The notes: generated by a model from the sequence alone, not told the origin. Shown: positions 7,502 to 33,036, numbered from the stretch's first letter. The stretch: 64,000 bases of DNA from Phycisphaerae bacterium (GCA_012729815.1 JAAYCJ010000251.1:26434-90433), one strand, 5' to 3'. Program-made: numbers and translations.

Positions 7502-8347
7502 ATGAATGCACTACCGAAACTGACTCTCCCCCAAGGCCAGATCGGCCCATACCCCATCGGCGGCCCGGACGCCCGCATGGTCGTTGTCGCAGGACCGTGC
7601 GTCATCGAATCCCTCGACCACTGCCTCACCGTCGCCGGCCGCGTCGGCGAAATATGCAAAGCCATCGACCTCCCGTGCTTCTTCAAAGCCAGCTTCGACA
7701 AGGCCAACCGCTCCAGCATCGACTCCTACCGCGGCCCGGGCCTCGAAAAGGGTCTCGAAATCCTCGCCGAAGTCAAACGCCGCACCGGCCTGCCCATCGT
7801 CACCGACATCCACACGCCCGACCAGGCCGCCCCAGCCGCCCAGACCGTCGACGTCCTCCAGATCCCAGCCTTCCTCGCCCGACAGACCGACCTGCTCGTC
7901 GCCGCCGCCCAAACCGGCCGTTGCGTCAACGTTAAGAAGGCCCAGTTCATGGCCCCCTGGGACATGGAAAACGTCCGCGATAAACTCCGCTCCGCCAACG
8001 CCCCCCACGTCGTCTTCACCGAACGCGGCGTCTTCTTCGGCTACAACCGCTGGGTCGTCGATTTCCGGGCCATCGAATGGATGCACCAGCTGGGCATACC
8101 CGTCCTCATGGACGCCACCCACGCCGCCGCCGACCCGGGCGGTATGGGCAAAGCCTCCGGCGGTCAGCGAGACATGGGCGCCCTCCTTGCCCGCGCCGGA
8201 GTCGCAGCCGGGGCCGACGGACTCTTCCTCGAAGTCCACGACAACCCCGAAAAGGCCAAATCCGATGCCGCCACCGTCCTGCCCCTCGACTGGCTGCCCG
8301 AACTCCTCGAACAGTGCCTCAAAATCTACCAAACCGTCCGAAAATAG
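7502..8347 (+). CDS. kdsA: 3-deoxy-8-phosphooctulonate synthase (KDO-8-P synthase)
   Basis: Strong collinear similarity to KdsA: FFKASFDKANRSSI.SYRGPGLE, VDVLQIPAFLARQTDLL, VNVKKAQF, HA...GGQR. Confidence 0.9.
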   Translation: MNALPKLTLPQGQIGPYPIGGPDARMVVVAGPCVIESLDHCLTVAGRVGEICKAIDLPCFFKASFDKANRSSIDSYRGPGLEKGLEILAEVKRRTGLPIVTDIHTPDQAAPAAQTVDVLQIPAFLARQTDLLVAAAQTGRCVNVKKAQFMAPWDMENVRDKLRSANAPHVVFTERGVFFGYNRWVVDFRAIEWMHQLGIPVLMDATHAAADPGGMGKASGGQRDMGALLARAGVAAGADGLFLEVHDNPEKAKSDAATVLPLDWLPELLEQCLKIYQTVRK

Positions 8348-8595
8348 CGATTTCTCCCGGCCCTTCTGGACGAATCCCACACTTGGGTCGTCATACGTAT
8401 TACAGCTCCATTTGCCGACCCTCGCCCCCGGCGACCATGACCTGCTCATCGCCGCCGACAGCCGATCCGCCGGACTCTCGACCGTTCCCCTCCGTATCTT
8501 CCGCGTCCTCCGTGCAAAAAACCCTTGCATTTCTTTGTATATATATTTATACATATAGGCAAAGACGCGGACTCGCGACAAAAGGACGCCAAATC

Positions 8596-9756
8596 ATGAC
8601 GCCGTTTCAGATCGACCCCAACCGCCCGGTGCCCCTTCACAGCCAGATCCGCGACGGCATCCAGGCCCTGATCCGCGACGGCGCCCATCAACCCGGCGAC
8701 CTGCTCTTCACCGAAGTCGGCCTCAGCCGACAGTTCGGCGTCAGCCTCGGTCCCATCCGCCAAGCCATCAACCACCTCGTCGCCGAAGGCCTCCTGATCC
8801 GCCGACGCGCCAAGGGTGTCTTCCTCGCCGAACCCCAACAAACCGCCGCGCAGAAAGTCACCTTCGTCATCCCCGACGTCGGCCACAGCTTCTACGGCTC
8901 AATGCTCCGCGGCGGCGAACAGTGCGCCCGCCAACTCGGCTATGACCTCCTCGTCGCCAACTCCGACTTCGACCTCCAAGCCGAGACCGATATCCTCGGA
9001 CGACTCGCCCAGACCGAACCGCACGCCGTCGTCCTCTGCCACATCGGCGGCGACCAGTGCCGCCGCCAGGTCGAAGAACTCATCGCCAGAGGCTTCGTCG
9101 TCGTCATGGTCGACACCCGCCTCGGCGATCTGCCCGTCGATACTGTCGAAAACGACAACTTCCAGATCGGCCTGGACGCCACGAACCACCTCCTCGCCCA
9201 CGGCCATCGCCGCATCGTCCACCTGACCAGCAGCGAGTGGCCGAACTCCGCTGTGACCGCCCGCCGAGACGGCTACGCCAATGCCATGGTCCAGGCCGGC
9301 CTCCAGCCGGTCGTCCAAACGATCCATCAACCCGGCGACCGATGGGAAATCGACGTCGAACGCCGCGTCACCCAATGGATCGAAAGCCTCAGCCAGCCGC
9401 TTCCCACTGCCATCTTTGCCATCAACGACACCGAATGCGTGGGCATCATCCGCGGCCTGATCGCCGCCGGCCTCGACGTCCCCACGGATCTATCCCTCAT
9501 CGGCTGCGCCGACCTCGACCTGGCCCGCGCCCTGACCGTCCCGCTGACCACCATCGACCAGGACAGCTACGGCATGGGCCGCCGGGCCGTCCAACGGGCC
9601 GTTGACCGACTCGAAGGACGACTCGCCGGCGACCCGACCAACGAAATCCATCCGCACCGCCTCGTCGAGCGAATGACCGTCCGCGAACTCGGCTCGCACG
9701 CAACCAACCGCCGCCGAACCTCCGGACAGGTCGCCGCAAAGAGCATCAAACCATAG
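8596..9756 (+). CDS. GntR-family transcriptional regulator with C-terminal periplasmic-binding-protein (LacI-type) sugar-binding domain
   Basis: N-terminal winged HTH (LHSQIRDGIQALIRDG...LFTEVGLSRQFGVSLGPIRQAINHL). PBP type-1 domain follows (VTFVIPDVGHSFYGSMLRG...). True start ATG at 8596; the ORF-track 5' extension from 8077 is low-complexity and rejected. Confidence 0.75.
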   Translation: MTPFQIDPNRPVPLHSQIRDGIQALIRDGAHQPGDLLFTEVGLSRQFGVSLGPIRQAINHLVAEGLLIRRRAKGVFLAEPQQTAAQKVTFVIPDVGHSFYGSMLRGGEQCARQLGYDLLVANSDFDLQAETDILGRLAQTEPHAVVLCHIGGDQCRRQVEELIARGFVVVMVDTRLGDLPVDTVENDNFQIGLDATNHLLAHGHRRIVHLTSSEWPNSAVTARRDGYANAMVQAGLQPVVQTIHQPGDRWEIDVERRVTQWIESLSQPLPTAIFAINDTECVGIIRGLIAAGLDVPTDLSLIGCADLDLARALTVPLTTIDQDSYGMGRRAVQRAVDRLEGRLAGDPTNEIHPHRLVERMTVRELGSHATNRRRTSGQVAAKSIKP

Positions 9757-9779: not shown

Positions 9780-10382
9780 ATGAACGCCGACCATCCAAAA
9801 CATTCGCCGCCAAACGCCAAAGCCTTCACCCTCATCGAACTCCTCGTCGTCGTCGCCATCATCGCCGTCCTGGTCTCCATCCTCTTGCCCGCCCTGGCCA
9901 GCGTCCGCAAACGGACGAAGGACTTGATGTGCGAGACAAATCTCCGGTCGCTCTGGCAGGCCACGCTGCTCTACGCCCAGGACAATCACGATCGGCTTCC
10001 ACCGGTGCCGTGGACCTCCGCCGCATGGTCCGAGCCGCAGCACAACCAGAGCTTCTGGGTCGATCAACTGGTTCCGTACATCGCCAAAAGCCTCCAGATC
10101 GAACTGGTGCCCGGCAAGGTCGACCACATCTTCCGCTGCCCGTACGACGGCACCTGGGACGGTTGGGGCCGCCGATCGTCCTATATGGTCTACCCCGAAC
10201 TCGCCCAGAACGGCTGGATGCTGACCGCCTTCTCCCAGCCATCCCGAACCACCTACATGAAGGACGTCATATACCTCTGGCACCTCGATCCCATCAGCAT
10301 GAGAGGATGCAACATCTCGTTCCTCGACGGGCACGTGGAATACGCCCCGGGCTCACGGGCCGATTACTGGTACTGGGAGTAG
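9780..10382 (+). CDS. DUF1559 (H-X9-DG) protein with prepilin-type N-terminal cleavage/methylation domain
   Basis: KAFTLIELLVVVAIIAVLVSILLPAL prepilin motif. C-terminal FLDGHVEY H-X9-DG-type motif typical of the Planctomycete-expanded family. Confidence 0.8.
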   Translation: MNADHPKHSPPNAKAFTLIELLVVVAIIAVLVSILLPALASVRKRTKDLMCETNLRSLWQATLLYAQDNHDRLPPVPWTSAAWSEPQHNQSFWVDQLVPYIAKSLQIELVPGKVDHIFRCPYDGTWDGWGRRSSYMVYPELAQNGWMLTAFSQPSRTTYMKDVIYLWHLDPISMRGCNISFLDGHVEYAPGSRADYWYWE

Positions 10383-10458: not shown

Positions 10459-11988
10459 ATGCGCGGACTCAACATCCTGGCCGGACTGATAGTCGGTTTC
10501 ACCCTCGGCGGCGCTTGCACCGCCGACCGCACCCGCGTCTCCCCCGCGGCCACCGGCGCCAACGCCATGTTCAACATGGCGGGCCTGTACTACGGAACCC
10601 TGCCGGCGTCGCACCCCGAATCCCGCCGGGCCGAATTCGCCAAACTCCTCCAGGATCGCGAAATCCGGCTCCTGCGGTTTCCCGGCGGCACGCTGGGCAA
10701 CTCAAGCTTCCTCGCCGACAACGACGAGGTCATGCGCTCGGTCCTCGGCGCCAGCGGCTATCCGGAAGGGGACCCCAACAAGTTCGTCACGCTCTGGCAG
10801 TTCCTCGACTTCTGCAAGGAAACCGGCACCATCCCGGTCTTCCACGTCAACATGCTGCTCCACACCGACGGCGAGAAGGTCTACCAGCTCACCGAAGCCG
10901 GCAGCACCGAAAGCCTGGTCCCGCCCACCGTGCAGCTCGACCCCGCCAAACGCGCCGACGCCGCTGAGGCCCTCACCAGACTCGTCGTCAAGGTCCGCGA
11001 AAAAGGCTTCTCCCTCAACCACTGGGAACTCGGCAACGAGGAATACGGCTATCCCCGCATGAAACCCTCCGACTACGCCGATATCGCCATCCGGTTCATC
11101 CGCGCCATCCGCCAAGCCGACGCACAGGCGATGATCTGGGTGACCCTGGGTTCCAACTTCTGCTCCGAATCCGACCGCCAGACCATCCCGCCCTGGTCGC
11201 AGGAGGTGCTCGCCCAACTGCGAAAAGCGGGCCTGACCGACGACAAAAACCTCGGCTTCACCCTCCACTACGTCTGGCCGGAATACATCCACGCGTACAC
11301 CGACATGGTCAAACGCTTCGGCTTCAAACCGCGATTCGCCGTCACCGAATTCCACATGGCCGGACTCGGCGACTATTCCGACCTCTGCCCCCGCTTCGGA
11401 TACGCCCTCGAACTCGCGCCCTATCTGATCAGCATGGTCAGGCTGCCCGCCGTGCGGATGCTCTGCATCCACGAACTGATCAGCCAGAACTTCGGCATCC
11501 TCCACTACAATCAACGAAGCTACGGCCCGCCCGGAATGGAAACCTGGGACGCCTCGCTGGGCTACCAGTCGATGCCCTCCGCCTACGTCTACGAACTCTT
11601 CGGCAAACTCATCGGCGGCCGCATCATCGAAGACGACGTGACCGACGCCAACCGACTCGTCGTCGAACGGGACAACGAACGCCGCATCTTCTTCATCAAC
11701 CGCACGGTCAACCCGACCACCGTCGAATGGAGCCGCCGGATCGTGGGAGCAAGCGCCGCCCGATTCGAATGCCAAACCCTCATCCCCAGCACCAGACCGG
11801 AAGGGGGGACCGATGAGGATGAGGCCTCAGCCCAGGCCCTCGGCCGATCCGCCTATCCGGGCGATCCGCTCCGCGCCGACGCGGTCCGACACGAACAGCA
11901 GACAGGCGACATCGGACCCAAAGGGCTGACGCTGACCGTCCCGTCCTACAGCATCAATCTCATCCGCTGCCTGCCGAACGATGAATAG
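10459..11988 (+). CDS. Glycoside hydrolase, clan GH-A TIM-barrel lipoprotein (GH39/GH79/GH5-like), paralog 1
   Basis: Lipobox LGGAC. Acid/base motif HWELGNEE. Nucleophile-region motif AVTEFHMAG. About 50% identical to the next ORF. Confidence 0.7.
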   Translation: MRGLNILAGLIVGFTLGGACTADRTRVSPAATGANAMFNMAGLYYGTLPASHPESRRAEFAKLLQDREIRLLRFPGGTLGNSSFLADNDEVMRSVLGASGYPEGDPNKFVTLWQFLDFCKETGTIPVFHVNMLLHTDGEKVYQLTEAGSTESLVPPTVQLDPAKRADAAEALTRLVVKVREKGFSLNHWELGNEEYGYPRMKPSDYADIAIRFIRAIRQADAQAMIWVTLGSNFCSESDRQTIPPWSQEVLAQLRKAGLTDDKNLGFTLHYVWPEYIHAYTDMVKRFGFKPRFAVTEFHMAGLGDYSDLCPRFGYALELAPYLISMVRLPAVRMLCIHELISQNFGILHYNQRSYGPPGMETWDASLGYQSMPSAYVYELFGKLIGGRIIEDDVTDANRLVVERDNERRIFFINRTVNPTTVEWSRRIVGASAARFECQTLIPSTRPEGGTDEDEASAQALGRSAYPGDPLRADAVRHEQQTGDIGPKGLTLTVPSYSINLIRCLPNDE

Positions 11989-12036: not shown

Positions 12037-13500
12037 ATGGGAGCATTGAAAATGAAGAGTATCCCCTGTGTGCTGACCGCCATCGTCACCGGGTTCTTCT
12101 GTGCCAGCGCCGCCCTCGCCGAACCGCATACCGTCTCGCCCCTCCTGGCCGGGGCCAACCTCCAGTTCAACGACTGCGGCTTCTACTACGGCTCCCTGCC
12201 CGCCGACGCCCCCGAATCCCGCCGGGCCGAATTCGCCGACCTCATGAAGCAAATCGGCATCGGCGTCCTCCGCTATCCCGGCGGATGGTTCGCCCACGAA
12301 TTCATCCCCGACAATGACCAGGCCATGCTCGAAGTCCAGCAATTCGCCCTCTGGCCCCAGTCCGACAAGAAGGTCTATCCCGACATCTGGCGATGGCTCG
12401 ACTTCTGCATGCAGACCAACATCGAACCGCTCTTCCAGGTCAACACGCTCCTCTACTTCGCCGACGGCAAAATGTACCGCCTCACCGAAGGCGCGTCCGA
12501 CCGCCGTGGGGCCAAGGAGGCCACCCCCGACCCCTCCAAACGCTCAGCCGCCGCCGACGCCCTCGCCCAACTCGTCAAAAAAACCACCCAACGCGGCTAT
12601 GCCGTCCGACACTGGGAACTCGGCAATGAGGAATATAGCGGCTACCCCGCCGCCGACTACGCCGACGTCGCCATCCAATTCACCAATGCCATCCGCCAAG
12701 CCGATCCCAACGCGATCATCTGGATCACCCTCGGCGACAACAGCCTCCGCGACCCAAAAAGCGATTTCTACAAATGGGCCCAGACCGTCCTCGCCGCCTG
12801 CCGCGACGCCGGCCTCAACAAGGACCCCAACGTCCGCTTCACCCTCCACTACTCATGGCGGGCCATCGTCGACGCCGCCGACAAACTCGTCCGCCAGTAC
12901 GGTTTCCAGCCGCGATTCGCCATCACCGAGTTCCACATGGCCGGCACCGGACCCTACTGGGACCTCTCACCCCGTTTCGGCTATGCCCTCGACCTCGCCA
13001 AATACCTCATCGAAATGGCCGCCGACCCGCGTGTCGAAATCCTCTGCATCCACGACCTCGACTCCCAGAACTTCGGCATCATCCACTACAACCAGCGCAG
13101 CTACGGCCTGCCCGGCATGCAAACCTGGGACGAAAGCCTCGGCTACCAGCTCATGCCCTCCGCCCGCACCTACGAACTCTTCAGCCGGACGGTAGGGGGG
13201 CAGGTCATCCCGCAAGCCTCCGACCCCAACCGCCTCGTCGTCGAGAAAGACGGCCATCGCGTCATCTTCGTCGTCAACCACACCGTCAACCCCATGACCG
13301 TCGAATGGGGTCCGCAAATCGTCGGCAAAGGCAGCGCCAAATTCACCCGCCACACCATCACGCCCGCCGACAAAAGCAAGGACGACCCGCGCCGCGTCGA
13401 TCAGACGGCTGAGGAAACCCAGCAGGGTGCCATCGCCAACGGCCGCCTCACCGTCGAGCTGCCCTCCATGAGCGTCTCCGCCGTCATCTGCACCAGGTGA
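12037..13500 (+). CDS. Glycoside hydrolase, clan GH-A TIM-barrel, paralog 2 (tandem duplicate)
   Basis: Signal peptide. HWELGNEE and AITEFHMAG motifs collinear with paralog 1. Confidence 0.7.
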   Translation: MGALKMKSIPCVLTAIVTGFFCASAALAEPHTVSPLLAGANLQFNDCGFYYGSLPADAPESRRAEFADLMKQIGIGVLRYPGGWFAHEFIPDNDQAMLEVQQFALWPQSDKKVYPDIWRWLDFCMQTNIEPLFQVNTLLYFADGKMYRLTEGASDRRGAKEATPDPSKRSAAADALAQLVKKTTQRGYAVRHWELGNEEYSGYPAADYADVAIQFTNAIRQADPNAIIWITLGDNSLRDPKSDFYKWAQTVLAACRDAGLNKDPNVRFTLHYSWRAIVDAADKLVRQYGFQPRFAITEFHMAGTGPYWDLSPRFGYALDLAKYLIEMAADPRVEILCIHDLDSQNFGIIHYNQRSYGLPGMQTWDESLGYQLMPSARTYELFSRTVGGQVIPQASDPNRLVVEKDGHRVIFVVNHTVNPMTVEWGPQIVGKGSAKFTRHTITPADKSKDDPRRVDQTAEETQQGAIANGRLTVELPSMSVSAVICTR

Positions 13501-13668
13501 CGGAGGTCCGTCGGACCCAAAACCGCCGCAACGCCTCCCAAAGAACTGCGACCGTCAGGGAGCGGGGCCTTTCTCCCGGCCGATTCACCTGACTTCCAAC
13601 GCGCTATCCTTCCCTCCAATTCCACCTCCCAGCCAACGCCTCCGCACGCGGCATCCCCGGCTTTTCCT

Positions 13669-13697
13669 TTGACTATACCTCCGATCTCCCCTAGAAT
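13669..13697 (+). promoter_or_regulatory. Sigma70-like promoter upstream of kaiC (TTGACT-17 nt-TAGAAT) with about 230-nt leader
   Basis: TTGACT at 13669-13674, a 17-nt spacer, then TAGAAT at 13692-13697. This is the only near-consensus hexamer pair in the 435-bp non-coding gap. Confidence 0.4.
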
Positions 13698-13935
13698 CTC
13701 TGTCAATTGTCTCATGCCGACCGGTATCTCGGGGCGTCTGAGACAACGGTTCACAGCGTGGGGAAAGTCGTCGCCCGCCGCGTCCACGGACGTTTCGGCG
13801 GCCGCAGCGACAACAAGCCGAATGGGGTGCGGTACTCACGAACGGCGCAAGTGCGTGGTTCCTGATCCCCCAATCGGCAACCGCGGGCGAAATGGCTGCC
13901 TCTATCGCCGGCCCACGAAGCCGGACCGGGAGGAA

Positions 13936-15699
13936 ATGAACGTGGCGAGAACAAAACGCACCTCCGAACCCTCAGCCCTGCCCAAAGCGCCCACTGGCAT
14001 CATCGGCTTCGACGAGATCACCTTCGGCGGACTCCCAAAAGGCCGGCCCACCCTCGTCGCCGGAGAACCCGGCAGCGGAAAAACCCTCTTCTCCAGCGAG
14101 TTCCTCGTCCGAGGCATCACCCAGTTCGACGAACCCGGCGTATTCATGGCCTTCGAGGAAACCGCCGAGGACCTGACCAAAAACGTCGCCTCCCTCGGCT
14201 TCGACCTCAACGATCTCGTCCGCCGAAACAAGCTCGCCATCGACTTCGTCTACGTCGAACGCAGCGAAATCGAGGAAACCGGCGAATACGACCTCGAAGG
14301 CCTCTTCGTCCGACTCGCCCTCGCCGTCCAGCAGGTCAACGCCAAACGAGTCGTCCTCGACACCGTCGAAGCCCTCTTCTCCGGATTCACCAACCCCTCC
14401 ATCCTCCGAGCCGAACTCCGTCGCCTCTTCCGTTGGCTCAAGGAACGCGACCTCACCGCCGTCATCACCGCCGAACGCGGCGAAAACACCCTCACCCGCT
14501 ACGGCCTCGAAGAATACGTCGCCGACGCCGTCATCGTCCTCGACCACCGAGTCCACGACGAAATCTCCACCCGCCGACTCCGAGTCGTCAAATACCGCGG
14601 CTCCTCGCACGGCACCAACGAATACCCCTTCCTCATCGGCGACCGCGGAATCTCCGTCCTCCCCATCACCTCCATCGGCCTCCACCACGTCGTCTCCACC
14701 GACCGTATCTCCTCCGGCGTCGCCGGCCTCGACCTGATGCTCGGCGGACGCGGCTACTACCGCGGCTCCACCATCCTGATCTCCGGTACCGCCGGAACCG
14801 GAAAAACCACCTTCGCCGCCCACTTCGCCAAAAAACTCTGCCAAGACGGCGGCCGATGCCTCTATCTGCCCATGGAGGAATCCCCCAGCCAGATCGTCCG
14901 CAACATGCATTCCATCGGCCTCGACCTTCAGCCATGCCTCAAGAAAGGCCTGTTGCGATTCGAACCCATGCGATCCACCCTCTACGGCCTCGAAATGCAC
15001 CTCCTGACCATCCACCGACTCGTCGAGGAATTTAAACCCGACGCCGTCGTCCTCGACCCCATCACCAACTACCTGGCCATCGGGGCCGAAGCGGACATCA
15101 AGTCGCTCCTCACCCGCGTCACCGACTACCTCAAGTCCCAGCGGATCACCACCGTCATGACCAGCCTCACCCACGGAGGCGAAACCATCGAAGGCTCCAA
15201 CGCCGCCGTCTCCTCCCTCGTCGACACCTGGATCCTCCTCCGAAGCGTCGAATGCAGCGGCGAGCGAAACCGCGTCGCCTACGTCCTCAAGTCCCGCGGC
15301 ATGTCCCACTCCAACCAGCTCAGCGAATACACCCTCTCCGCCGACGGCGTCCGTTTCATCCAGCCCTACATCGGGCCCGCCGGCGCCCTCACCGGCTCGG
15401 CACGCGTCAGCCGCGAGGCGATCGAACAGGCCCAGGCCGCCGAGGCAAGTCAACAGATCGACCTCAAACGACGCGAACTCGACCGCAAACGACGAATGCT
15501 CGACGCACAGATCGCCCTCCTCCAGGCTCGTTTCGAAGGTGAACAGCAGGAAACCGAGCAGGCCATCGCACAGCAAAGAACCCGCGCCGATATTCTACAA
15601 CAGGACCGCCGCGACATCGCAAAACTCCGCCACATCGCCAACCACGGCCGCGAGCAGCCGGCCCGTGCGAAAAGCGCCAACAAAGGAAAAAAGAAATGA
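13936..15699 (+). CDS. kaiC: Circadian clock protein KaiC homolog (double RecA/DnaB-like ATPase) with about 70-aa C-terminal coiled-coil-like extension
   Basis: Two Walker A motifs ([16 protein letters not shown]), each followed by a catalytic EE pair (AFEETAED; PMEESPSQ). [16 protein letters not shown] and [11 protein letters not shown] KaiC signatures. The C-terminal 70 residues are Q/R/E-rich and heptad-like. Start ATG at 13936 is preceded by GGGAGG. Confidence 0.9.
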
Positions 15700-16031
15700 C
15701 CGCCGATAAAGACAACAAAGCAAAAACCGCCGCCGCGGACCAAAGCGATACCGACCGCGACTTCTGGGAACTCCGACTCTACGTCGCCGGACAGACCCCA
15801 AAGTCCCTGACCGCCTTCGCAAACCTTAAACGAATCTGCGAGGAGCACCTCCAGGGCAAGTACACCATCGAGGTCATCGACCTCCTCGAAAACCCCCGGC
15901 TCGCCCAGGGCGACCAGATCCTCGCCATTCCCACTCTGGTCCGAAAGCTCCCCGAACCCGTGCGAAAAATCATCGGCGACTTGTCCAACGAGGAACGCGT
16001 CCTGATCGGCCTGGACCTGCGGCCCAGATAA
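15696..16031 (+). CDS. kaiB: KaiB homolog 1 (thioredoxin-like fold). The ATGA start overlaps the kaiC stop.
   Basis: [27 protein letters not shown]...[53 protein letters not shown] is collinear with KaiB. Confidence 0.9.
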
Positions 16032-16087
16032 CCACGCGCCCCGGCCAATGAGGGCCGAAGCGCTTTAAAAAGGATGGGACCATACAA

Positions 16088-16438
16088 ATGACATCGAAGC
16101 AACGCGACGACAAGACCAGAGACTTCGAACGGGCCGCCGAGGAGGCAGCCGGCCACCCGTACGTCCTGCGGCTCTACATCGCTGGCAAGACCGAACGCTC
16201 CATGCACGCCATCGAGCAGATCCGCAGCGTCCTCGAACAACGCCTGCCCGGCCGCTACGAACTCGAAGTCATCGACGTCCACCAGCATCCCGAAATGGTC
16301 CGCGCCGACCAGGTCATCGCCGTGCCCACCCTCGTCAAAAAACTCCCCGAACCCCTCCGAAAAATCATCGGCTCCATGGCCGACCAGGACCGACTCCTCA
16401 TCGGCCTCGACCTCCTGCCCAGGGAGGACAAACCATGA
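16088..16438 (+). CDS. kaiB: KaiB homolog 2 (tandem paralog)
   Basis: LRLYIAGKTERSMHAIEQIRSVLEQRLPGRYELEVIDVHQHPEMVRADQVIAVPTLVKKLPEPLRKIIGSMADQDRLLIGLDL. Confidence 0.9.
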   Translation: MTSKQRDDKTRDFERAAEEAAGHPYVLRLYIAGKTERSMHAIEQIRSVLEQRLPGRYELEVIDVHQHPEMVRADQVIAVPTLVKKLPEPLRKIIGSMADQDRLLIGLDLLPREDKP

Positions 16439-16460
16439 CCCGCGACACAGATACCCGTAG

Positions 16461-16481
16461 GGTGCGTCGTCCCGACGCACC
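16461..16481 (+). other. GC-rich stem-loop (GGTGCGTCG-tcc-CGACGCACC) between kaiB2 and the histidine kinase; no U-tract
   Basis: Perfect 9-bp inverted repeat seen directly. Function (partial terminator/attenuator or processing site) is unknown. Confidence 0.3.
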
Positions 16482-16603
16482 GTTCTCCGCTCGCACCTCC
16501 AATCACCCTCCGGCCGCCAACGCCCCATCTTGCATTTTGCACTTTGCTATTTTCTATTTTCATTCTGTCTTTCTCTATCGCTTCCGCGGAGCATCCGCCG
16601 ACC

Positions 16604-18241
16604 ATGACCGATAACGAAAAAAACATCCCGATCTCCAACCTCCCGTCCGATGAAGCCCAGGAAACCCTCCGCGCCATCCGCGACGGAGAAATCGACGCCC
16701 TCGTCGTCGCCGCCCCGGACGGCGAAAAAGTCTACACCCTCACCGGCGCCGAACGGCCCTACCGCGTCTTCGTCGAAAACATGACCGAAGGCGCCGTCAC
16801 CCTCAGCCCCGACGGCGCCATCCTCTACGCCAACCGACGCTTCGCCGAAATGGTCCACCTGCCCGTCGAGTACGTCATCGGTTCCTCCATCCTGCCCCTC
16901 TTCGGGTCCGCCGACCGCCACGCCTTCCAAGCCCTCCTCCGCGCCGCCGCCCAATCCGCCCAAACCGCCGAATGCGTCTTCCAACTCGCCGACGACGCCA
17001 CCGTTCCCGTCCACGTCTCCGCCAGTCCCCTCCAGGCCGAAACCCTCGACGCCGTCGCCGTCGTCGTCACCGACCTGACCGAACAGAAACGCCGCGACGA
17101 AGTCCTCGCCGCCGAACGACTCGCCCGGTCCATCCTCGAACAGGCCACCGAGCCCATCGTCGTCTGCGACGACCGCGGACGCATCATCCGCGCCAGCCGC
17201 GCCGCCCGTGAACTCTGCGGCCGCGACCCCCTCTTCCAGCCCTTCAACGACCTCTTCCCCCTCCACCTCGAAGACGGCCGCCCGCTGCGATTCTGTCTCG
17301 ACAACGGAAAACCAAACCCCACCGATCCTGCCCCCCTCTGTCTCTGCCAGGGCGTCAAGGCCACCGAAGCCCTTTTCGAAAATAACGGACGCAGAAACCT
17401 GCTCGTCAACGCCGGGCCCCTCCGCGACGGCCACGACCGCATCGTCGGCTGCGTCGTCACCCTCACCGATATCACCGATCGCAAGCTCGCCGAACTGGCC
17501 CTCCAACGCTCTCGCGACCAGCTCGACCAACTCGTGCATCAGCGCACCGAACAGCTCGCCCGCTCAAACGCCGACCTCGAACACTTCGCCTACATCGCCT
17601 CTCACGACCTCCGCGAACCCCTCCGTACCGTCGCCTCCTTCGTCGAACTCCTCCAACGACGCTACAACGACCGCCTCGACGATGACGCCCGCTCCTACAT
17701 CAAATACGCAGCCGACGGGGCCAAGCGAATGAACAGCCTGATCCAGGACCTCCTCGCCTACTCCCGCATCTCCACCCGAGGCCAGCCGCCAAAACCCACC
17801 GACCTCAACGACGCCTTCGAACGCGCCGTCCGGAACGTCCACGCCGCCATCGACGAAACCGATGCCCAGATCACCCACGACCCGCTCCCCACCGTCCCCG
17901 CCGACCCCACCCAGATCCTCCAGATATTCCAGAACCTCCTCGAAAACGCCATCAAGTTCCGAAGCGGCAAACCCCCGCGCATCCACGTCTGGGCCGAGCG
18001 ACGCGATCCCGACTCCGTCACCATCGCCGTCCGAGACAACGGCATCGGAATCGCCCCCGAATTCGCCGACCGAATCTTCGTCCCATTCCAGCGACTCCAC
18101 ACCCACCAGAAATACCCCGGAAGCGGAATAGGACTCGCCATCTGCCAACGCATCGTCCAACGACACAACGGGAAAATCTGGGTCGAATCTCAACCCGAAC
18201 AGGGCGCCACCTTCTTCTTCACCCTCCCAACCCACGCCTGA
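16604..18241 (+). CDS. Cytoplasmic PAS/PAC-domain sensor histidine kinase (HisKA + HATPase_c, no receiver), kai-associated
   Basis: H-box FAYIASHDLREPLRTV. N, G1/G2 boxes (LLENAIKF, RDNGIGI, GSGIGLAICQ). At least two PAS-like segments, no TM helices. Start ATG at 16604. Confidence 0.85.
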   Translation: MTDNEKNIPISNLPSDEAQETLRAIRDGEIDALVVAAPDGEKVYTLTGAERPYRVFVENMTEGAVTLSPDGAILYANRRFAEMVHLPVEYVIGSSILPLFGSADRHAFQALLRAAAQSAQTAECVFQLADDATVPVHVSASPLQAETLDAVAVVVTDLTEQKRRDEVLAAERLARSILEQATEPIVVCDDRGRIIRASRAARELCGRDPLFQPFNDLFPLHLEDGRPLRFCLDNGKPNPTDPAPLCLCQGVKATEALFENNGRRNLLVNAGPLRDGHDRIVGCVVTLTDITDRKLAELALQRSRDQLDQLVHQRTEQLARSNADLEHFAYIASHDLREPLRTVASFVELLQRRYNDRLDDDARSYIKYAADGAKRMNSLIQDLLAYSRISTRGQPPKPTDLNDAFERAVRNVHAAIDETDAQITHDPLPTVPADPTQILQIFQNLLENAIKFRSGKPPRIHVWAERRDPDSVTIAVRDNGIGIAPEFADRIFVPFQRLHTHQKYPGSGIGLAICQRIVQRHNGKIWVESQPEQGATFFFTLPTHA

Positions 18242-18266
18242 CCACCTGCGGAACCTCCGGCCCCGC

Positions 18267-20780
18267 TCACGCCTTCTCCGCCAACTCCCGGCACTTGAGC
18301 ACCACGTAGCTCACCAGCGCATGCCGCAGCCACGCATACCGCCCTTGCTCCAACGCCTCGCCGATCTCCCGCGCCATCCGATCCATCCCCGTCACCAACC
18401 GTCCGCTCCTGGCCACCGCCTCGATCGCCTTCAGCGCCTTCTTCGCCTCCGCCCTCAACGACTTGACGATCCGATCGGCCACCTTCACCGAAAACCCCAC
18501 CGGCTCAACCGCCGGATCCAGCCCGACCGACAAAAGCTGATACGGCTCCAGCACGAGATTCCACTTCTTGCCCGCCCGAAGCGCCTTGCCGTCCGACAGG
18601 TCCGTCAACTCCTTCGGCGACCCGCTGAACGCCACCTCTACCTCCACCGGATAGTACTCGCGGTTCACCAAATACACGTATCGCCGCCCGCCGTGCACCA
18701 GCGTCCGCACCGCCACCGGATCGGTCGTCCCGCCCACCGTCTCGAACTTCGCGTCCGGCAGCGCCCGATACGCCCGCGCGAACCGACGCAACTGGTCGCT
18801 GTGCGCCTTCTCCAGAAACAGCCCGCCTCGCGTGATCCGGCACGCGTCCAATTCCGCCATCGCGTGCGCGTACGGCTCCATAAAATGCACCTCCGGCGGA
18901 AACGCCGGCGTGATCCGCAACTGCGAATCCCACCAGAACCCGTCCGGCGGATATTCCGAATTCATCCGGAACATCCCCTCCGCCTTCTTCCCGTACGTAT
19001 ACGCCAGCCGATCCGCCTGCTCGTCGTCCTCGCCGCACGCGAACCACTTGTGCTTGCCCCACGCCTCGTGCCACGCGTTGAAAATCAGCACGCCAGGCTT
19101 CCGCTGCTCCGCCAGCGACCCCAGCGTGTCCCGATCCAGAAAATCGAAGTCCTTGAACCCGCAGTTCATCTCCAGCGTGTAGTTCTCGAACTCCGACTGA
19201 GTCCGGTCACGACCGCCCCCCTCGAACTGGACGTCGAACTCGATCCCATCCTCCTCACGGTACATCTCCAGATCCAACCCCGCCTCGCGATAAATCTGCC
19301 GCAGGCTTCGCCGAGCGTAGATCTGGTGGAACGCCCGGTCCCGTCCCCACGCGATCCCCAACGTCTCGCTCCAGCAGTTCAGCGTCAACCGCAGATCCTT
19401 CCGCTGGGCCGTCAGCGCGTCCCGCATCCGACCGATCAACGCCTTGATCTTCCGGCACCGCCAGTCCAACCACGCCTCACGGCAATAGAACATCAGCCAT
19501 TCGTACCGCTTCGAAAACCGGTCCGCGGCCTTTCCATCCACGTCCACCTTGATCCCCGTCTCCTGCTCGAACAGACCGACCGTGTAGTCGTCGTACCCGC
19601 TGTGCACCGACCCGAACCAGATGATCGTCGGCACCCACATCGTAATCGCCACCCCCTTGAACGCCGGCGATTTCCCGTACCGGCGGGCGATCTCGTCGAT
19701 GAACCCCACGATCGCCTCCTGCACCACCGGGTGAAGCGGATTGAACATCGGACCGCCGTGATACGGCTGGCATCGCTTCTCCCCGTACGCCCACTCGAAC
19801 CCCGACAAATCGCCGCAAACCTTCTCGTACTGGGGAACCAACGCGTCGTAAACCTTCGTGTTGTACACCGTCGTCCAGTCCATCGTCCCCGCCTGGACCT
19901 GGTCGTTCGACAGCATGTTGTTGATCGTCTCCGCCCCGCCCTTGATCGCCTCCAGGTCGATGTTCATCTTCCCCATCAGCGACCCGAGCCGCAACAGCGT
20001 CAACACCCCCTGAAACTCCAGCCCCTCCTGCTCGAACCGCTTCAAAATCGTCGCCGGCCAGTCCGGCGGCTCGCTCGTCCACGCCGTATACTGACGCCGG
20101 TCCTCCGCCACCACCACGCTGAAGCAGTCCGACGGCTCCCGCTCCGAATTGAAGCAAGGCCCGTGATACCAGCAGATCGGGTACGCCAGCATCTTCTGAC
20201 CCGTGTGTTGGGCATAATCGACCATCCGATCCAGCCACGTCTCAAACGTCATCGCCCCTTCGCTCGCCCCCGTCCCGCACGGGTCCTCGTATTGAATGCC
20301 GAACTGCCGCCGATCCCGCCGCTTCTGCAGCGCCGTCAACGCCAGCGCCGGCAACTCCTCCAACTCGTAAACCTCAATGCTCTCGATCGCCGCCGGCTCC
20401 CCGTGGCCCCACGTCATGAACGCGATGCTGCAATCCTTCCACCGCGGCCAGAACACCTGGTGAATCGTCTGCATCGTCCCGCTGATCGGCGTCGTAAAAC
20501 CCGTGTAGATTCCCGTCGACAGGTCGTAGCACGTCCCGTCGTTAATCACCATGAACCGACGCTTGTCGTCCGGATACCGAATCACCGCCACGTGAGGCCG
20601 GCCCACGTGCTCGATCGCAAATCGATACCCAAACCGCGACAGCGGCCGCGCCTCCGCCTCCCGATACCGCCCCGCGCCCCCCTTAACCACCTTCACGTCA
20701 CCGCACGCGAAATACTCCTCCGGAGAATACTCCTTCGTGCAGTCAAACTCCGCCACCTTGCACTTGATCGGCGCATCCAT
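18267..20780 (-). CDS. Large hypothetical protein (837 aa), possibly a carbohydrate-active enzyme; no signal peptide evident
   Basis: Long ORF with host codon usage. Trp/aromatic-rich barrel-like segments. No recognisable catalytic motif. Confidence 0.55.
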   Translation of the reverse strand: MDAPIKCKVAEFDCTKEYSPEEYFACGDVKVVKGGAGRYREAEARPLSRFGYRFAIEHVGRPHVAVIRYPDDKRRFMVINDGTCYDLSTGIYTGFTTPISGTMQTIHQVFWPRWKDCSIAFMTWGHGEPAAIESIEVYELEELPALALTALQKRRDRRQFGIQYEDPCGTGASEGAMTFETWLDRMVDYAQHTGQKMLAYPICWYHGPCFNSEREPSDCFSVVVAEDRRQYTAWTSEPPDWPATILKRFEQEGLEFQGVLTLLRLGSLMGKMNIDLEAIKGGAETINNMLSNDQVQAGTMDWTTVYNTKVYDALVPQYEKVCGDLSGFEWAYGEKRCQPYHGGPMFNPLHPVVQEAIVGFIDEIARRYGKSPAFKGVAITMWVPTIIWFGSVHSGYDDYTVGLFEQETGIKVDVDGKAADRFSKRYEWLMFYCREAWLDWRCRKIKALIGRMRDALTAQRKDLRLTLNCWSETLGIAWGRDRAFHQIYARRSLRQIYREAGLDLEMYREEDGIEFDVQFEGGGRDRTQSEFENYTLEMNCGFKDFDFLDRDTLGSLAEQRKPGVLIFNAWHEAWGKHKWFACGEDDEQADRLAYTYGKKAEGMFRMNSEYPPDGFWWDSQLRITPAFPPEVHFMEPYAHAMAELDACRITRGGLFLEKAHSDQLRRFARAYRALPDAKFETVGGTTDPVAVRTLVHGGRRYVYLVNREYYPVEVEVAFSGSPKELTDLSDGKALRAGKKWNLVLEPYQLLSVGLDPAVEPVGFSVKVADRIVKSLRAEAKKALKAIEAVARSGRLVTGMDRMAREIGEALEQGRYAWLRHALVSYVVLKCRELAEKA

Positions 20781-21983: not shown

Positions 21984-22928
21984 GTGATGGAAACCTCTAC
22001 AATCTCAACTGATGCGTCAGCATTGTCACTTCTGGACCGCCCGACCCCCGGGTTTGTCAAGCACGGTCCCACAATCGCCGAAGTTCATGCTAGAGGTCTG
22101 AGTACGGCCGACCGGTCCGGGTGGAAACCCAGCCGGATCGACGTGCGGGGGCCCGGGGTCGCGCCCGGTCTGGCCCCATCAAAACTTAACGCGTTCGCAG
22201 GTGGAGGGAAGATGACCGGATACTCTTACGAACTGGGCGAAAAACAATCCTCACGGGTCCTCGAGCAGGCGGTGCGGGTTCACTCGCCCGTCTGGGCGGA
22301 GGCCATCGACCACACCCATCTCCAGTCGGCCAGCGGCAAAATGCTCAAAGCCGAGGAAACCGTCGTCTATCTCAAGGTCAACTCCGAAACCCCCGAGATG
22401 GACCACGCCATGCCCGGCCAGTACTACCAACTGGTCATCTCCCTCGACGACCAGCGATACCTCACCGTCTCCGATCTCGTCGAGGTCCAGACCTCAACCG
22501 AAGGGCCCGTCATGGTCTTCTCACGCCCGCGAAGCATCCAGGTGCTCCAGCGGAGACGCTACGTCCGAAGCGTCCCCAGCCAGTCCTATCCCGTCTACCT
22601 GCGATCCGAAACCGAGGACCGAAACCAGGACAAACCCGTCCTCGGACAGATCCGCGATATCAGCGTCAGCGGCATGTCCATCCGACTGCCCGGAGACGCC
22701 GACTCCAACCTCTTCATCGGCGACGTCGTCCAACTCCGATTCAGCCTCTCGGTCCGCGAACCCGAATTCGTCACCCGCGCCGCCATCTGCCACAAACAAA
22801 TGGATACCGAAAAGGCCGAACTCGTCACCGGCGTCGAATTCGTCCCCGAAAGCCAGGACCCCAACTTCCAGTCGCGCCTTCGGGGCATGTTGCTCCAGGA
22901 CGGCACCGGCCTCAAAAGGCAAAGCTAG
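21984..22928 (+). CDS. PilZ-domain protein (c-di-GMP receptor-like). The start is uncertain; an internal ATG at 22209 is possible.
   Basis: RxxxR motif (QRRRYVRS) and D-x-S-x-x-G motif (IRDISVSGMSIRL) with PilZ spacing. Confidence 0.65.
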   Translation: MMETSTISTDASALSLLDRPTPGFVKHGPTIAEVHARGLSTADRSGWKPSRIDVRGPGVAPGLAPSKLNAFAGGGKMTGYSYELGEKQSSRVLEQAVRVHSPVWAEAIDHTHLQSASGKMLKAEETVVYLKVNSETPEMDHAMPGQYYQLVISLDDQRYLTVSDLVEVQTSTEGPVMVFSRPRSIQVLQRRRYVRSVPSQSYPVYLRSETEDRNQDKPVLGQIRDISVSGMSIRLPGDADSNLFIGDVVQLRFSLSVREPEFVTRAAICHKQMDTEKAELVTGVEFVPESQDPNFQSRLRGMLLQDGTGLKRQS

Positions 22929-22946
22929 AGCAGAGAGGGAAATCGC

Positions 22947-23702
22947 ATGTACGCTATCCTCGTTCCCTGGGACCAGTCGAACGAAAACCTCATGTGGGCC
23001 ATCGAAACCAGGGCCCATCTCCGACTCACCCTGCGCCTGGCCAAGGAGTGGATCGAACTCGGCTCCGAATTCATCGGCGGTACCGAACTCCAGTCCCTGC
23101 TCATCCGAAAGTTCCCCGGCGCCTGGAACAACCGACTCCTCGCCGGCCAGCTTCTGCCCTGCAGCTTCCGAAAGGGACACAAAAAGTACATGTTCGTCAC
23201 CGCCGTGATGGACGAAAAGACCGTCGAGGTCGACGGACAACAGGAAACCGCCTTCGTCCTCGCATGGCCCGAAGGCCTCCAGGAGATGCAGCGGCGGCAT
23301 TTCTACCGCGCCGCCGTCCCCGACCAGTTCGACCTCGCCGTCAAAATCTGGGACTCCGTCCCCGCCATCGGCCAGACGCCAACCGCCCCTCCGCTGGCCG
23401 TCGGCAAACTCATCGACGTCAGCGCCGGCGGCGCCCAGATCGAACTGCCCACCGACGCCAGAATCCAGGTCGACCGCGGCTATCTCCTCGAAATCGAACT
23501 GCCCACCCCCGAACAGCCCGTCCTCGTCCAGGCACGCTCCCGACACACCGACGGCCAGGCCCCGCCCGGCGCCAGCCGGTTCGGCATGCAGTTCCTCTCA
23601 CTCGACTACAGCCCGCGCGGACAGGAAACCATGATGCGACTCGCCCGATTCGCCAACTACCTGCGTAGCTGCGAAACCGTCGCCAAATCCCGCTCCGCCT
23701 GA
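22947..23702 (+). CDS. PilZ-domain protein 2 (YcgR-like two-domain arrangement)
   Basis: RRHFYR (RxxxR) followed by DVSAGGAQIEL (DxSxxG). Confidence 0.65.
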   Translation: MYAILVPWDQSNENLMWAIETRAHLRLTLRLAKEWIELGSEFIGGTELQSLLIRKFPGAWNNRLLAGQLLPCSFRKGHKKYMFVTAVMDEKTVEVDGQQETAFVLAWPEGLQEMQRRHFYRAAVPDQFDLAVKIWDSVPAIGQTPTAPPLAVGKLIDVSAGGAQIELPTDARIQVDRGYLLEIELPTPEQPVLVQARSRHTDGQAPPGASRFGMQFLSLDYSPRGQETMMRLARFANYLRSCETVAKSRSA

Positions 23703-27607: not shown

Positions 27608-27644
27608 CAGGCATTAACAAGCATCACGAGAAACGAGGTATATC

Positions 27645-28862
27645 ATGGACCTGACCACTTCCGACGTTTTGAATCTCTACGCCAAACACGTCATCGCCAA
27701 CTACCGCCGACTCCCCATCGTCATCGTCCGCGCCGAAGGCAACCGAATGTGGGACCTCGACGGAAAGGAATACCTCGACTTCTTCCCCGGCTGGGCCGTC
27801 AGCGGACTCGGTCACTGCCATCCCAAAGTCGTCCAGGCCGTCCAGAAACAGGCCGGTGAGCTTATCCACATCGACAACACCTTCGCCAGCGTCCCCCAGG
27901 CCCGACTCGCCCGGATGCTCTCCGAACGAAGCTTCGGCGGAAAGTGCTTCTTCTGCAACAGCGGCGCCGAAGCCAACGAAGCCGCCCTCAAACTCGCCCG
28001 ACTCAAGGGCGCCGGACAACGCCACAAGATCATCTCCATGGAAAAAAGCTTCCACGGCCGCACCTTCGCCGCCATGACCGCCACCGGACAGGCAAAAACC
28101 CACGCCGGATTCCAGCCCCTCGTCCCCGGTTTCGCCTACGTCCCCTTCAACGACTTCGACGCCCTCGCCGAAGCCGTCGATGACCAGACCGTCGGCGTCA
28201 TCCTCGAACCCATCCAGGGTGAAGGCGGTGTCAACATCGCCGACGCCGAATACCTCCACAAGGTCCGCGACCTCTGCGACCAGCGGGACATGGTCCTGAT
28301 CCTCGACGAGGTCCAGACCGGCATGGGGCGAACCGGAACCTGGTTCGGCTACCAGCAGTACGACGTCGTGCCCGACGTCGTCGTCCTCGCCAAAGCCATC
28401 GGCGGCGGCGTCAGCCTCGGTGCCATCATCGCCAAACCCCAACTCGCCGACCTCATGAAGCCCGGCACCCACGCCTCCACCTTTGGCGGAAACCCCCTCG
28501 CCTGCGCCGCCGGTGTCGCCGTCGTCGAAGCCATCGAAGAAGAAAACCTCCTCCAAGCCGCCACCCAACGAGGCGCCTACCTCCGCCAAAAACTCGAACA
28601 ACTCCAGGAAAAGTACCCCATCATCACCGAGATCCGACAGGTCGGCCTGATGATCGGCGTCGAACTCTCCGTCGCCGGCGATGACATCGTCGCCGCCGCA
28701 CTCGAAAGGGGACTCCGAGTCAACTGCACCCAGCAGACCGTCCTGCGAATGTCGCCCGGCATGACCGTCACCGACGAAATGATCGACCAGGCCGTCGCCA
28801 TCCTCGACGAGTCGTTCGCCCAGTGCCAGAACGGCCTGCTCCAAACGCCGGCGGAGGGCTAA
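27645..28862 (+). CDS. argD: Acetylornithine aminotransferase (class III PLP aminotransferase)
   Basis: ILDEVQTGMGRTG, GGG.SLGA, TFGGNPLA motifs. Lies within the arg operon. Confidence 0.9.
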   Translation: MDLTTSDVLNLYAKHVIANYRRLPIVIVRAEGNRMWDLDGKEYLDFFPGWAVSGLGHCHPKVVQAVQKQAGELIHIDNTFASVPQARLARMLSERSFGGKCFFCNSGAEANEAALKLARLKGAGQRHKIISMEKSFHGRTFAAMTATGQAKTHAGFQPLVPGFAYVPFNDFDALAEAVDDQTVGVILEPIQGEGGVNIADAEYLHKVRDLCDQRDMVLILDEVQTGMGRTGTWFGYQQYDVVPDVVVLAKAIGGGVSLGAIIAKPQLADLMKPGTHASTFGGNPLACAAGVAVVEAIEEENLLQAATQRGAYLRQKLEQLQEKYPIITEIRQVGLMIGVELSVAGDDIVAAALERGLRVNCTQQTVLRMSPGMTVTDEMIDQAVAILDESFAQCQNGLLQTPAEG

Positions 28863-28865
28863 CCC

Positions 28866-29801
28866 ATGCAGCCGATCCGACACTTCATCAACATCCTCGA
28901 CTACGACCGTCCGACCCTCGCGGGCCTCATCGAAAAATCCATCGCCGATAAAAAACGCCTCGCCGCAGGCCCCCTCGACCCCTGCCTCGCCCGCCGAAGC
29001 GTCGCCATCTACATGGAAAAACCCTCCCTCCGAACCCGCGTCAGCTTCGAACTCGCCGTCGTCCAGCTCGGCGGCTATCCCGTTATCCTCAACCACGCCG
29101 AAATCGGACTCGGTGCCCGCGAACCCGTCAAGGACGTCGCCCGAGTCATCTCCCGAATGTGCGACGGCTTCGTCGCCCGAACCTTCAGCCACGAAGCCCT
29201 CGAGGAATTCGCCCGATACGCCTCCGTCCCCGTCGTCAACGCCCTGACCGACTACAGCCACCCCTGCCAGGCCATGGCCGACCTGCTCACCGTCCGCGAA
29301 CGCTTCGGCTCGCTCCAGGGCCTCAAGCTCGCCTACGTCGGAGACGGCAACAACGTCGCCCGATCCCTCGCCGCCCTCTGCGCACGACTCGGCGTCGCCT
29401 TCGCCATCGCCGCCCCACAAGGCTTCCAACTCGAAGACGAATTCGTCCGATCCCTCCGCCAGCGCGCGCCAAACGCCGCCTTCGAACAATCCGACGATCC
29501 GCGCCGCGCCGCCGACGGCGCCCACGTCCTCTACACCGACACCTGGGTCTCCATGGGCCAGGAAAAGGACCGCGAACGCAAGGTCCAGGCCTTCAAGGGC
29601 TTCCAACTCACCGCCGACCTTCTTCGCTCCGCCGCCGACAACGCCGTCGTTATGCACTGCCTCCCCGCCTACCGCGGTATGGAAATCACCGACGAGCTCA
29701 TGGAGTCCCCCCAGTCCGTCGTCTTCGACCAGGCCGAAAACCGACTCCACTTCCAGCGAACCCTCCTCGCCGCACTCATCGGAGGCGAACAAATCGACTG
29801 A
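28866..29801 (+). CDS. argF: Ornithine carbamoyltransferase
   Basis: STRTRVSFE carbamoyl-phosphate motif and HCLPA ornithine-binding motif. Confidence 0.9.
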   Translation: MQPIRHFINILDYDRPTLAGLIEKSIADKKRLAAGPLDPCLARRSVAIYMEKPSLRTRVSFELAVVQLGGYPVILNHAEIGLGAREPVKDVARVISRMCDGFVARTFSHEALEEFARYASVPVVNALTDYSHPCQAMADLLTVRERFGSLQGLKLAYVGDGNNVARSLAALCARLGVAFAIAAPQGFQLEDEFVRSLRQRAPNAAFEQSDDPRRAADGAHVLYTDTWVSMGQEKDRERKVQAFKGFQLTADLLRSAADNAVVMHCLPAYRGMEITDELMESPQSVVFDQAENRLHFQRTLLAALIGGEQID

Positions 29802-29837
29802 CGCCCAGGCACGCGCGGGCTGATCGCCGTCAAAGGA

Positions 29838-30602: not shown

Positions 30603-30656
30603 CAAGCGAACAAACGCGACCCCGTAGACCCGGCAGGACGTGTTGCCACCCGCCAA

Positions 30657-30690
30657 AACACACCTTGCCTCTCCCCCAAATCAGCAATCT
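30657..30690. repeat. 34-bp direct repeat R1 copy 1 (AAAACACACCTTGCCTCTCCCCCAAATCAGCAATC)
   Basis: 33/34 identical to 33590..33624. Together they bracket the 703-aa gene and the transposase remnant. Confidence 0.7.
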
Positions 30691-30723
30691 ACAATCAGAA
30701 ATCAGCAATCACTCCCCTCCTCG

Positions 30724-30754: not shown

Positions 30755-30921
30755 TCGATGCGAGAACGCAGCGCTAGGCGCCCGAATCAACCCCGTACGC
30801 CATCATCGCAAAAAGCCACCAACGAATTGCCCTTACCCGGTCATACCGAAAAACAGGCGCCGTTGATGCCCGTGTACGAGAACGTCCTGCGGTAATTCGG
30901 AACACTCCCGAATCAAGGTTC

Positions 30922-33033: not shown

Positions 33034-33036
33034 TCC

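Follow-up and report, generated by a model that had tools for sequence, protein, structure and literature searches.

Outside the cyanobacteria, kaiC-kaiB gene clusters are generally associated with histidine kinases (De Luca et al., PMC3164672), and KaiB2 and KaiC2 proteins are broadly distributed (Schmelling et al., PMC5520375). The KaiC2 clade is defined by a ~50-aa extension, two-serine phosphosites and the lack of KaiA, and the coiled-coil KaiC of Rhodobacter sphaeroides (KaiC-RS), a dodecamer, has already been published (PDB 8DBA/8FWI/8FWJ; Pitsawong et al. 2023, PMC10076222). The C-terminal extension supplies a KaiA-like function in this clade, and the R. sphaeroides system (KaiBC-RS, consisting of KaiC-RS and KaiB-RS) does not free-run, the KaiC-RS cycle being driven by the ATP:ADP ratio (PMC10076222). 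Operons of the form kaiC-kaiB-PAS/histidine kinase are known in Rhodopseudomonas palustris and R. sphaeroides (Ma et al. 2016, PMC4794148). The arrangement 'kaiCBB' has been noted once in passing, in one sentence without analysis (Thiodictyon syntrophicum Cad16T, PMC5944118); in the literature we found neither the function nor the evolution of a tandem KaiB pair addressed, and no paper linking KaiC with the Phycisphaerae. The subject of the present analysis is a kaiC-kaiB-kaiB-histidine kinase module at positions 13669-18241 of a 64-kb stretch of DNA (the window) from a Phycisphaerae bacterium, with all features of the module on the + strand.

Phycisphaerae is a class within the Planctomycetota. 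The module comprises kaiC, a proximal kaiB (kaiB1), a distal kaiB (kaiB2) and a gene for a PAS-bearing histidine kinase, and we propose that it is most probably a four-gene operon for a KaiBC timer that works without KaiA and is of the KaiC2 or R. sphaeroides type. A preliminary description made from the DNA had listed these four genes without kaiA; all four open reading frames (ORFs) were recovered where it had placed them, the Pfam and NCBIfam matches agree, and profile searches for KaiC, KaiB, HisKA and PAS matched all four families in the expected genes. The kaiC and kaiB genes are closely packed or overlapping, and so are those of relatives. The start of kaiB1 lies within the kaiC stop codon (ATGA overlap), where translational coupling had been suggested earlier, and 56 nt separate kaiB1 from the second, likewise full-length, KaiB domain. 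The exact protein sequences are in GenBank from a Phycisphaerae bacterium metagenome-assembled genome (MAG), as NLX06766.1 ('circadian clock protein KaiC'), NLX06767.1 ('circadian clock protein KaiB'), NLX06768.1 ('hypothetical protein GXY33_16650') for KaiB2 and NLX06769.1 ('PAS domain-containing protein') for the kinase, and the suspected planctomycete host is thereby established. The locus also occurs in several public assemblies at an identity of at least 99.86%.

Pfam KaiC (PF06745) matched KaiC in two stretches (E 1e-108), and the NCBIfam model NF006799, 'circadian clock protein KaiC', gave 699 bits against a cutoff of 408, confirming a full double-domain KaiC. Both Walker A motifs (GEPGSGKT at residue 43 in CI and GTAGTGKT at residue 284 in CII) and both Glu-Glu pairs (74-75, with FEE at 73, and 314-315, with MEE at 313) are present, at positions that are invariant across an alignment of 16 sequences. 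A VSSL phosphosite motif at residues 425-428 is aligned with S413/S414 of KaiC-RS, and the EE phosphomimetic of 8FWI occupies the same alignment columns as the Ser-Ser pair. The top solved relative is KaiC-RS (PDB 8DBA/8FWI), with an E-value of 5e-182 over aligned aa 15-544. The protein has 587 aa compared with 519 aa in Synechococcus elongatus KaiC; its score of 334.6 bits with TIGR02655 (circ_KaiC) is under the cutoff of 546, and the nearest non-self match in a protein search was just 62% identical. Longer starts that would give 676 or 661 aa (TTG 13669, ATG 13714) receive no support from the N-termini of homologues. Judged by its sequence, the protein is a clear orthologue of R. sphaeroides KaiC and belongs within the published KaiC2 dodecamer/hourglass clade.

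The preliminary description had also proposed a heptad-like tail of ~70 aa (15490..15699) and a likeness to extension-bearing proteobacterial KaiC proteins. The likeness holds and is typified by R. sphaeroides KaiC, the 8DBA alignment extending through the coiled-coil region as far as residue 544. Since the top 120 KaiC homologues are 566-637 aa long, all of them carry the C-terminal extension. The AlphaFold2 model, built with 16 homologues, contains a single unbroken helix at residues 487-569 (predicted local distance difference test score, pLDDT, ~80-89) and disorder is predicted solely for the final 18 residues, so that the tail as modelled is helical and not, as the preliminary description had allowed for, disordered. 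Local a/d patterns are present (I508, L515, L522, L529 and I526, F533, L554, I561). The extension, its predicted helix and these local patterns stand, and heptad periodicity over the whole tail lacks statistical support. Since the global heptad test was not significant (p = 0.18), the coiled coil is argued from homology together with the predicted helix, and it is by homology that we infer a coiled-coil assembly of the KaiC tail.

The protein search with KaiC returned at least 8000 matches at E < 1e-50, and a scan of one genome per species placed a KaiC relative in at least 582 species from many phyla. Gene order was compared in the 80 loci closest to this KaiC, the best among these species, with kaiB and kinase homologues placed by tblastn. 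These loci come from Planctomycetota (Schlesneria, Fuerstiella, Gemmataceae and others), Verrucomicrobiota, Acidobacteriota, Bacteroidota, Chloroflexota, several proteobacterial classes, Cyanobacteria, Methanoperedens and Bathyarchaeota. Where at least 1.3 kb was available downstream of kaiC (69 loci), two tandem kaiB genes were found in 48, one in 20 and three in 1. Following the last kaiB, a kinase with a homologous N-terminal PAS region was present in 58 of the 64 loci whose downstream sequence reached 2 kb or more, starting 45-240 nt 3' of that gene. The order kaiC-kaiB-kaiB-PAS/histidine kinase is the normal form among the closest relatives and is not peculiar to planctomycetes; since the sample consists of the 80 closest loci, the 70% share of two-kaiB loci is no estimate for the whole KaiC2 clade. 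Within the Planctomycetota the two-kaiB architecture is found in Schlesneria, Fuerstiella and unclassified MAGs, and one Gemmataceae MAG has the single-kaiB form. The earlier suggestions that tandem KaiB copies are unusual and that the architecture is special to this lineage must therefore be abandoned. Some relatives depart from these patterns: three kaiB genes follow kaiC in a Desulfomonilaceae locus (L024; 2118-3163), two complete kaiC-kaiB cassettes stand in tandem in another (L015; 5339-10000), and the sole kaiB of a Leptolyngbyaceae locus (L034) is of the distal type.

Both KaiB proteins of the window match Pfam KaiB (PF07689; cutoff 27), with 98.6 bits (E 1.7e-28) for KaiB1 and 86.8 bits (E 7.9e-25) for KaiB2. 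With NCBIfam NF006798, KaiB1 passes the cutoff of 110 at 111.4 bits and KaiB2 falls below it at 97.2 bits. KaiB1 best matches KaiB-RS in the cryo-electron microscopy complex of KaiC and KaiB (8FWJ chain M, E 1.4e-32), and KaiB2 is the more divergent of the two. Across the relatives, the best match of a distal KaiB was the distal KaiB of another locus in 52 of 53 cases, and that of a proximal KaiB was another proximal one in 47 of 54. All 54 distal KaiBs, from many phyla, fell into one clade of a neighbour-joining tree with one intruder, and nearly every one of 100 bootstrap replicates contained a clade of 48-54 distal KaiBs with no more than 4 others. Mean identity is 0.74 among proximal KaiBs, 0.59 among distal KaiBs and 0.52 between the two; within a single locus, the proximal and distal KaiBs share just 0.53 across the relatives and 0.49 in the window. 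Since the proximal and distal KaiBs behave as orthologue groups, the kaiB duplication is ancient, and a recent duplication is ruled out by the nearest-neighbour and neighbour-joining analyses. The distal KaiB is, on these trees, an ancient orthologue group kept apart from KaiB1 since before the phyla diverged. The KaiBs of single-kaiB loci cluster with the proximal KaiBs, though not as one clade, and single-kaiB relatives are scattered among two-kaiB relatives in the tree, which suggests that the distal copy has been lost repeatedly.

Distal KaiBs have signature residues of their own, Tyr25, Leu59, Tyr65 and Lys84 in KaiB2 numbering (W24Y, I58L, L64Y and R83K in KaiB1 numbering), and an N-terminal Phe/Glu motif is conserved among them. 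KaiB1 (G105 and D107) and KaiB2 alike retain the Gly/Asp switch positions. Confidence in the AlphaFold2 model of KaiB2 is low (mean pLDDT 63), and AlphaFold2 is unreliable for fold-switching proteins; the model gave template modelling (TM) scores of 0.8-0.87 to ground-state KaiB crystals over ~90 columns and fits fold-switched KaiB over the N-terminal half only. The possibility that KaiB2 is a SasA-like adaptor locked in the thioredoxin fold was raised by its slightly better match to NF006800 (34.5 vs 20.1 bits) and gained no support from this low-confidence model, which has the ground-state KaiB fold. Because KaiB2 has been conserved apart from KaiB1 from a time before the phyla split, a non-redundant role in the KaiBC complex is probable, as we infer from synteny. 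We tentatively suggest, at somewhat less than even likelihood, that the distal KaiB is no redundant duplicate but a fourth component, with a function of its own, in the ancestral KaiC2 hourglass, and that the most common form in nature has been reduced in the single-KaiB systems of R. sphaeroides, R. palustris and Legionella; the single clade of 54 distal copies, the signature residues and the Phe/Glu motif speak for such distinctness. As a distinct component, KaiB2 might tune the binding of KaiB1 to KaiC or connect the state of KaiC to the PAS kinase.

The kinase contains two PAS domains, HisKA (E 7.7e-14, aa 346-410 of a 565-aa ORF, with the H-box 'ASHDLREPL') and HATPase_c (E 1.9e-31), but neither a REC domain nor a transmembrane segment, in agreement with the cytoplasmic multi-PAS kinase described previously. 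Its likely start, judged by public gene calls and the onset of tblastn homology, is ATG 16604, giving 545 aa, and not TTG 16544. NF006800 matches the kinase core only (aa 320-563), the N-terminal half consisting of PAS domains alone, and a SasA-type N-terminal KaiB-like KaiC-binding domain was not present in the kinase in the Pfam and NCBIfam searches. Among ~50 ORFs of the window picked by codon bias (three others and a 281-aa ORF at 7502-8347 were left out), none encoded KaiA, a REC domain or a second KaiC, and a tblastn search of the entire window with four REC queries gave no match, in line with the earlier report of a module lacking both kaiA and a receiver-containing partner. Since no REC domain was found in the window, the partner of the kinase must be encoded elsewhere in the genome. 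In 21 of 51 relatives a REC domain is encoded on the kaiC strand, 2-4 kb downstream of that gene.

The mechanism proposed here takes the steps of KaiC and KaiB1 from the published R. sphaeroides system by homology, and the roles of the kinase and KaiB2 from synteny only. KaiC hexamers would pair tail-to-tail via the C-terminal coiled coil to form a dodecamer, and the extension would keep the A-loops exposed, permitting nucleotide exchange and autophosphorylation at Ser426/Ser427 without KaiA. Fold-switched KaiB1 would then bind the CI ring of phosphorylated KaiC and raise ATP hydrolysis, tipping KaiC to dephosphorylation when the ATP:ADP ratio drops. The outcome would be an environmentally reset hourglass and not a free-running clock. 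The PAS histidine kinase would most likely couple the KaiBC state to gene expression or feed in a redox or metabolic signal, presumably acting through the response regulator encoded elsewhere.

Several points weigh against a KaiBC timer of the R. sphaeroides type. The identity of KaiC to KaiC-RS is only ~60%; the 3.5-residue periodicity is the highest Fourier peak in the KaiC tail but has a p of 0.18 against shuffles; the kinase lacks a KaiB-like or pseudo-receiver domain through which it could read KaiC; the window yielded no response regulator; and the day-night exposure of the host, hence the physiological input, is uncertain. The same biochemical module may have a non-timing role instead, as a stress or energy-state switch that reports ATP:ADP or redox to a two-component pathway, a signalling role of the kind proposed earlier for Legionella KaiBC and Pseudomonas KaiC-like proteins. 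This would suit a family found in many non-phototrophs and archaea (Methanoperedens, Bathyarchaeota, Syntrophales and Bacteroidales MAGs) with PAS sensor domains always attached, as well as the ATP:ADP-driven nature of the published KaiC-RS cycle itself (PMC10076222), and KaiC-like stress functions are reported in a preprint (bioRxiv 10.1101/2022.01.26.477890). However, the closest characterised orthologues, those of R. sphaeroides and R. palustris, are hourglass timers tied to light-dark growth, and we regard a switch without timing as rather unlikely. The two roles are not mutually exclusive, and the physiological meaning of the module could equally be energy- or redox-state signalling instead of day-night timing.

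It is far less probable that the locus encodes a self-sustained, temperature-compensated circadian oscillator in which KaiB2 stands in for KaiA. There would be three Kai components, as in KaiABC, and KaiB2 is a conserved and distinct partner, but it is a plain KaiB-fold protein without a KaiA-like domain, and single-kaiB relatives are interspersed among two-kaiB ones. Furthermore, the extension already gives a KaiA-like function in the clade, whose KaiBC-RS member does not free-run (PMC10076222). Weak secondary matches of the 587-aa protein to RadA, RecA, DnaB and archaeal KaiC-domain models could be taken to mean that it is a non-clock RadA/archaeal KaiC-like ATPase with thioredoxin-like bystanders as its kaiB genes, a placement that the preliminary description had named as one that would refute its reading. 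These matches are far under their cutoffs (58 bits against 403 for RadA), whereas NF006799 is well exceeded, and the double domain, the Ser-Ser sites and the identity to KaiC-RS refute such an assignment, to which we give practically no probability. The KaiA-independent KaiBC timer is preferred.

Regulatory features around the genes (Table 1) are less distinctive. The near-consensus promoter and 230-nt leader described for kaiC can be located; however, the promoter-type match, the sole one in 13300-18600 (5.3 kb) with 0.6 +/- 0.8 expected, is not distinguishable from chance. The leader folds no better than shuffled sequences (z -1.27), and Rfam gave nothing relevant at the gathering threshold in the whole window or at E up to 1 in 13450-16650. 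Since the other assemblies are at least 99.86% identical, they are uninformative on the conservation of promoter and leader. The hairpin between kaiB2 and the kinase gene, reported earlier as a stem-loop without U-tract that suggests differential expression, is real (free energy -16.6 kcal/mol, z -3.2) but is not conserved in relatives. The spacer in which it lies is unusually long at 165 nt, the median in 50 relatives being ~40 nt, and the relatives' spacers have a median z of 0.14, with z < -2 in 4%. A conserved attenuator was rejected on these short spacers without excess structure, and the hairpin is a local feature to which comparison with relatives gives no part in differential expression. 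A 59-aa ORF at 16435-16614 (+), called in some public assemblies, overlaps the kaiB2 stop (ATGA) and the kinase start codon and spans the hairpin and a T-rich stretch; it is probably spurious, because the relatives have no room for such an ORF.

Table 1. Coordinates of the kai module and associated features within the 64-kb window.
Feature	Position	Strand	Description
Sigma-70-like promoter match TTGACT-17-TAGAAT	13669-13697	+	10 of 12 positions
Putative 5' leader, ~230 nt	13698-13935	+	GGAGG Shine-Dalgarno 5 nt before ATG 13936
kaiC	13936-15699	+	587 aa; KaiC2/dodecamer clade; CI ~aa 17-244, CII ~aa 256-485, Ser426/Ser427 phosphosites
KaiC C-terminal extension, aa 487-569	15394-15642	+	one long predicted helix, homologous to R. 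sphaeroides KaiC coiled coil
Lys/Arg-rich disordered KaiC C-terminal end, aa 570-587	15643-15696	+	pLDDT < 50; not conserved in alignment
kaiB1 (proximal KaiB)	15696-16031	+	111 aa; R. sphaeroides KaiB orthologue; proximal clade
kaiB2 (distal KaiB)	16088-16438	+	116 aa; member of separate ancient KaiB orthologue group
Hairpin GGTGCGTCG-TCC-CGACGCACC	16461-16481	+	9-bp GC-rich stem, 3-nt loop, no U tract
PAS-PAS-HisKA-HATPase_c histidine kinase	16604-18241	+	545 aa, soluble, without receiver domain

Upstream of kaiC on the same strand are a GntR/LacI-type regulator (8077-9756) and a protein with an N-terminal methylation motif (9780-10382), followed directly before kaiC by tandem paralogous proteins of 509 and 487 aa without Pfam match (10459-11988 and 12037-13500, +). 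Second-messenger genes occur near the kai operon: two adjacent PilZ-domain proteins are encoded at 21984-23702 (+), and at 42320-43261 (-) a DAC-domain protein (c-di-AMP synthase) that also has a DacZ_P sensor domain. The window as a whole has a very strong strand asymmetry: GC skew is about -0.25 in the first 30 kb and lies between +0.2 and +0.27 from 40 to 64 kb, and at third codon positions it runs from -0.36 to -0.78 in the left part and from +0.27 to +0.70 in the right part, irrespective of gene orientation. The sign flips at ~39200-40000, between a GlmM-like gene (38450-39808) and a gene for a tRNA-binding domain (39927-40280). No dnaA was found near the flip, and DnaA boxes there were neither clustered nor beyond chance; the flip may mark an origin, a terminus or a rearrangement breakpoint. 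Skew is much weaker in the block 27624-36490, which holds large ORFs without Pfam match (27624-30284, -; 30922-33033, -; 34265-36490, +) and an rve_3 integrase-core fragment (33037-33531, -), and which may be an inserted or mobile segment. Just right of the flip, a housekeeping block at 43578-50745 (-) carries dnaB, ssb, rpsF, pth, L25/TL5, phosphoribosyl pyrophosphate (PRPP) synthetase and a GlmU-like gene, the 726-aa DnaB having a ~270-aa N-terminal extension ahead of its DnaB_N domain. An oxidative-stress cluster at 50882-55956 (+) includes a Fur-family regulator (50882-51478), a KatG-like haem peroxidase (51528-53729) and an AhpC/1-Cys peroxiredoxin (55282-55956).

The module is already published as a type and annotated in GenBank, and this locus is a further Phycisphaerae example of a widespread KaiBC timer; taken singly it matters little, adding one example to a module of hundreds of species. 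Of some value for the clock field is that the dominant arrangement among the closest relatives is kaiC-kaiB-kaiB-PAS/histidine kinase and not the kaiC-kaiB-histidine kinase of the model organisms. The model systems studied appear to be without a distal KaiB, and this protein, of which we found no study, should be included when the R. sphaeroides hourglass mechanism is extended to other bacteria and archaea.

Compared with R. sphaeroides KaiBC, the window shares a double-domain KaiC (~60% identity) with Ser-Ser sites and a ~50-70-aa extension alignable through the coiled coil, the lack of kaiA, a kaiB directly downstream and a PAS histidine kinase in the operon. It differs in its extra distal KaiB, the R. 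sphaeroides and R. palustris operons being described without one, in the cyanobacterial-type Gly/Asp pair of KaiB1 (G105, D107) where KaiB-RS has Asn/Lys, and in its host, a Phycisphaerae planctomycete and not a purple phototroph. With the proto-circadian system of R. palustris it has in common the order kaiC, kaiB, PAS histidine kinase with a single predicted promoter, a KaiC2-type KaiC and the absence of KaiA, but the R. palustris operon has a single kaiB, and there are data on adaptive fitness and nitrogen-fixation rhythm for R. palustris. The double-ATPase fold and catalytic residues of KaiC, the KaiB family and a histidine kinase partner are shared with S. elongatus KaiABC, from which the window differs in lacking KaiA, in its Ser-Ser instead of Ser-Thr phosphosites and in the predicted coiled-coil extension on KaiC; its kinase bears PAS domains and has neither the KaiB-like N-terminal domain of SasA nor the pseudo-receiver of CikA. 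In gene order the kaiCBB of Thiodictyon syntrophicum Cad16T is similar, with kaiC followed by two kaiB genes and an adjoining signalling protein, although the neighbour there is a diguanylate cyclase upstream and in the window a PAS histidine kinase downstream.

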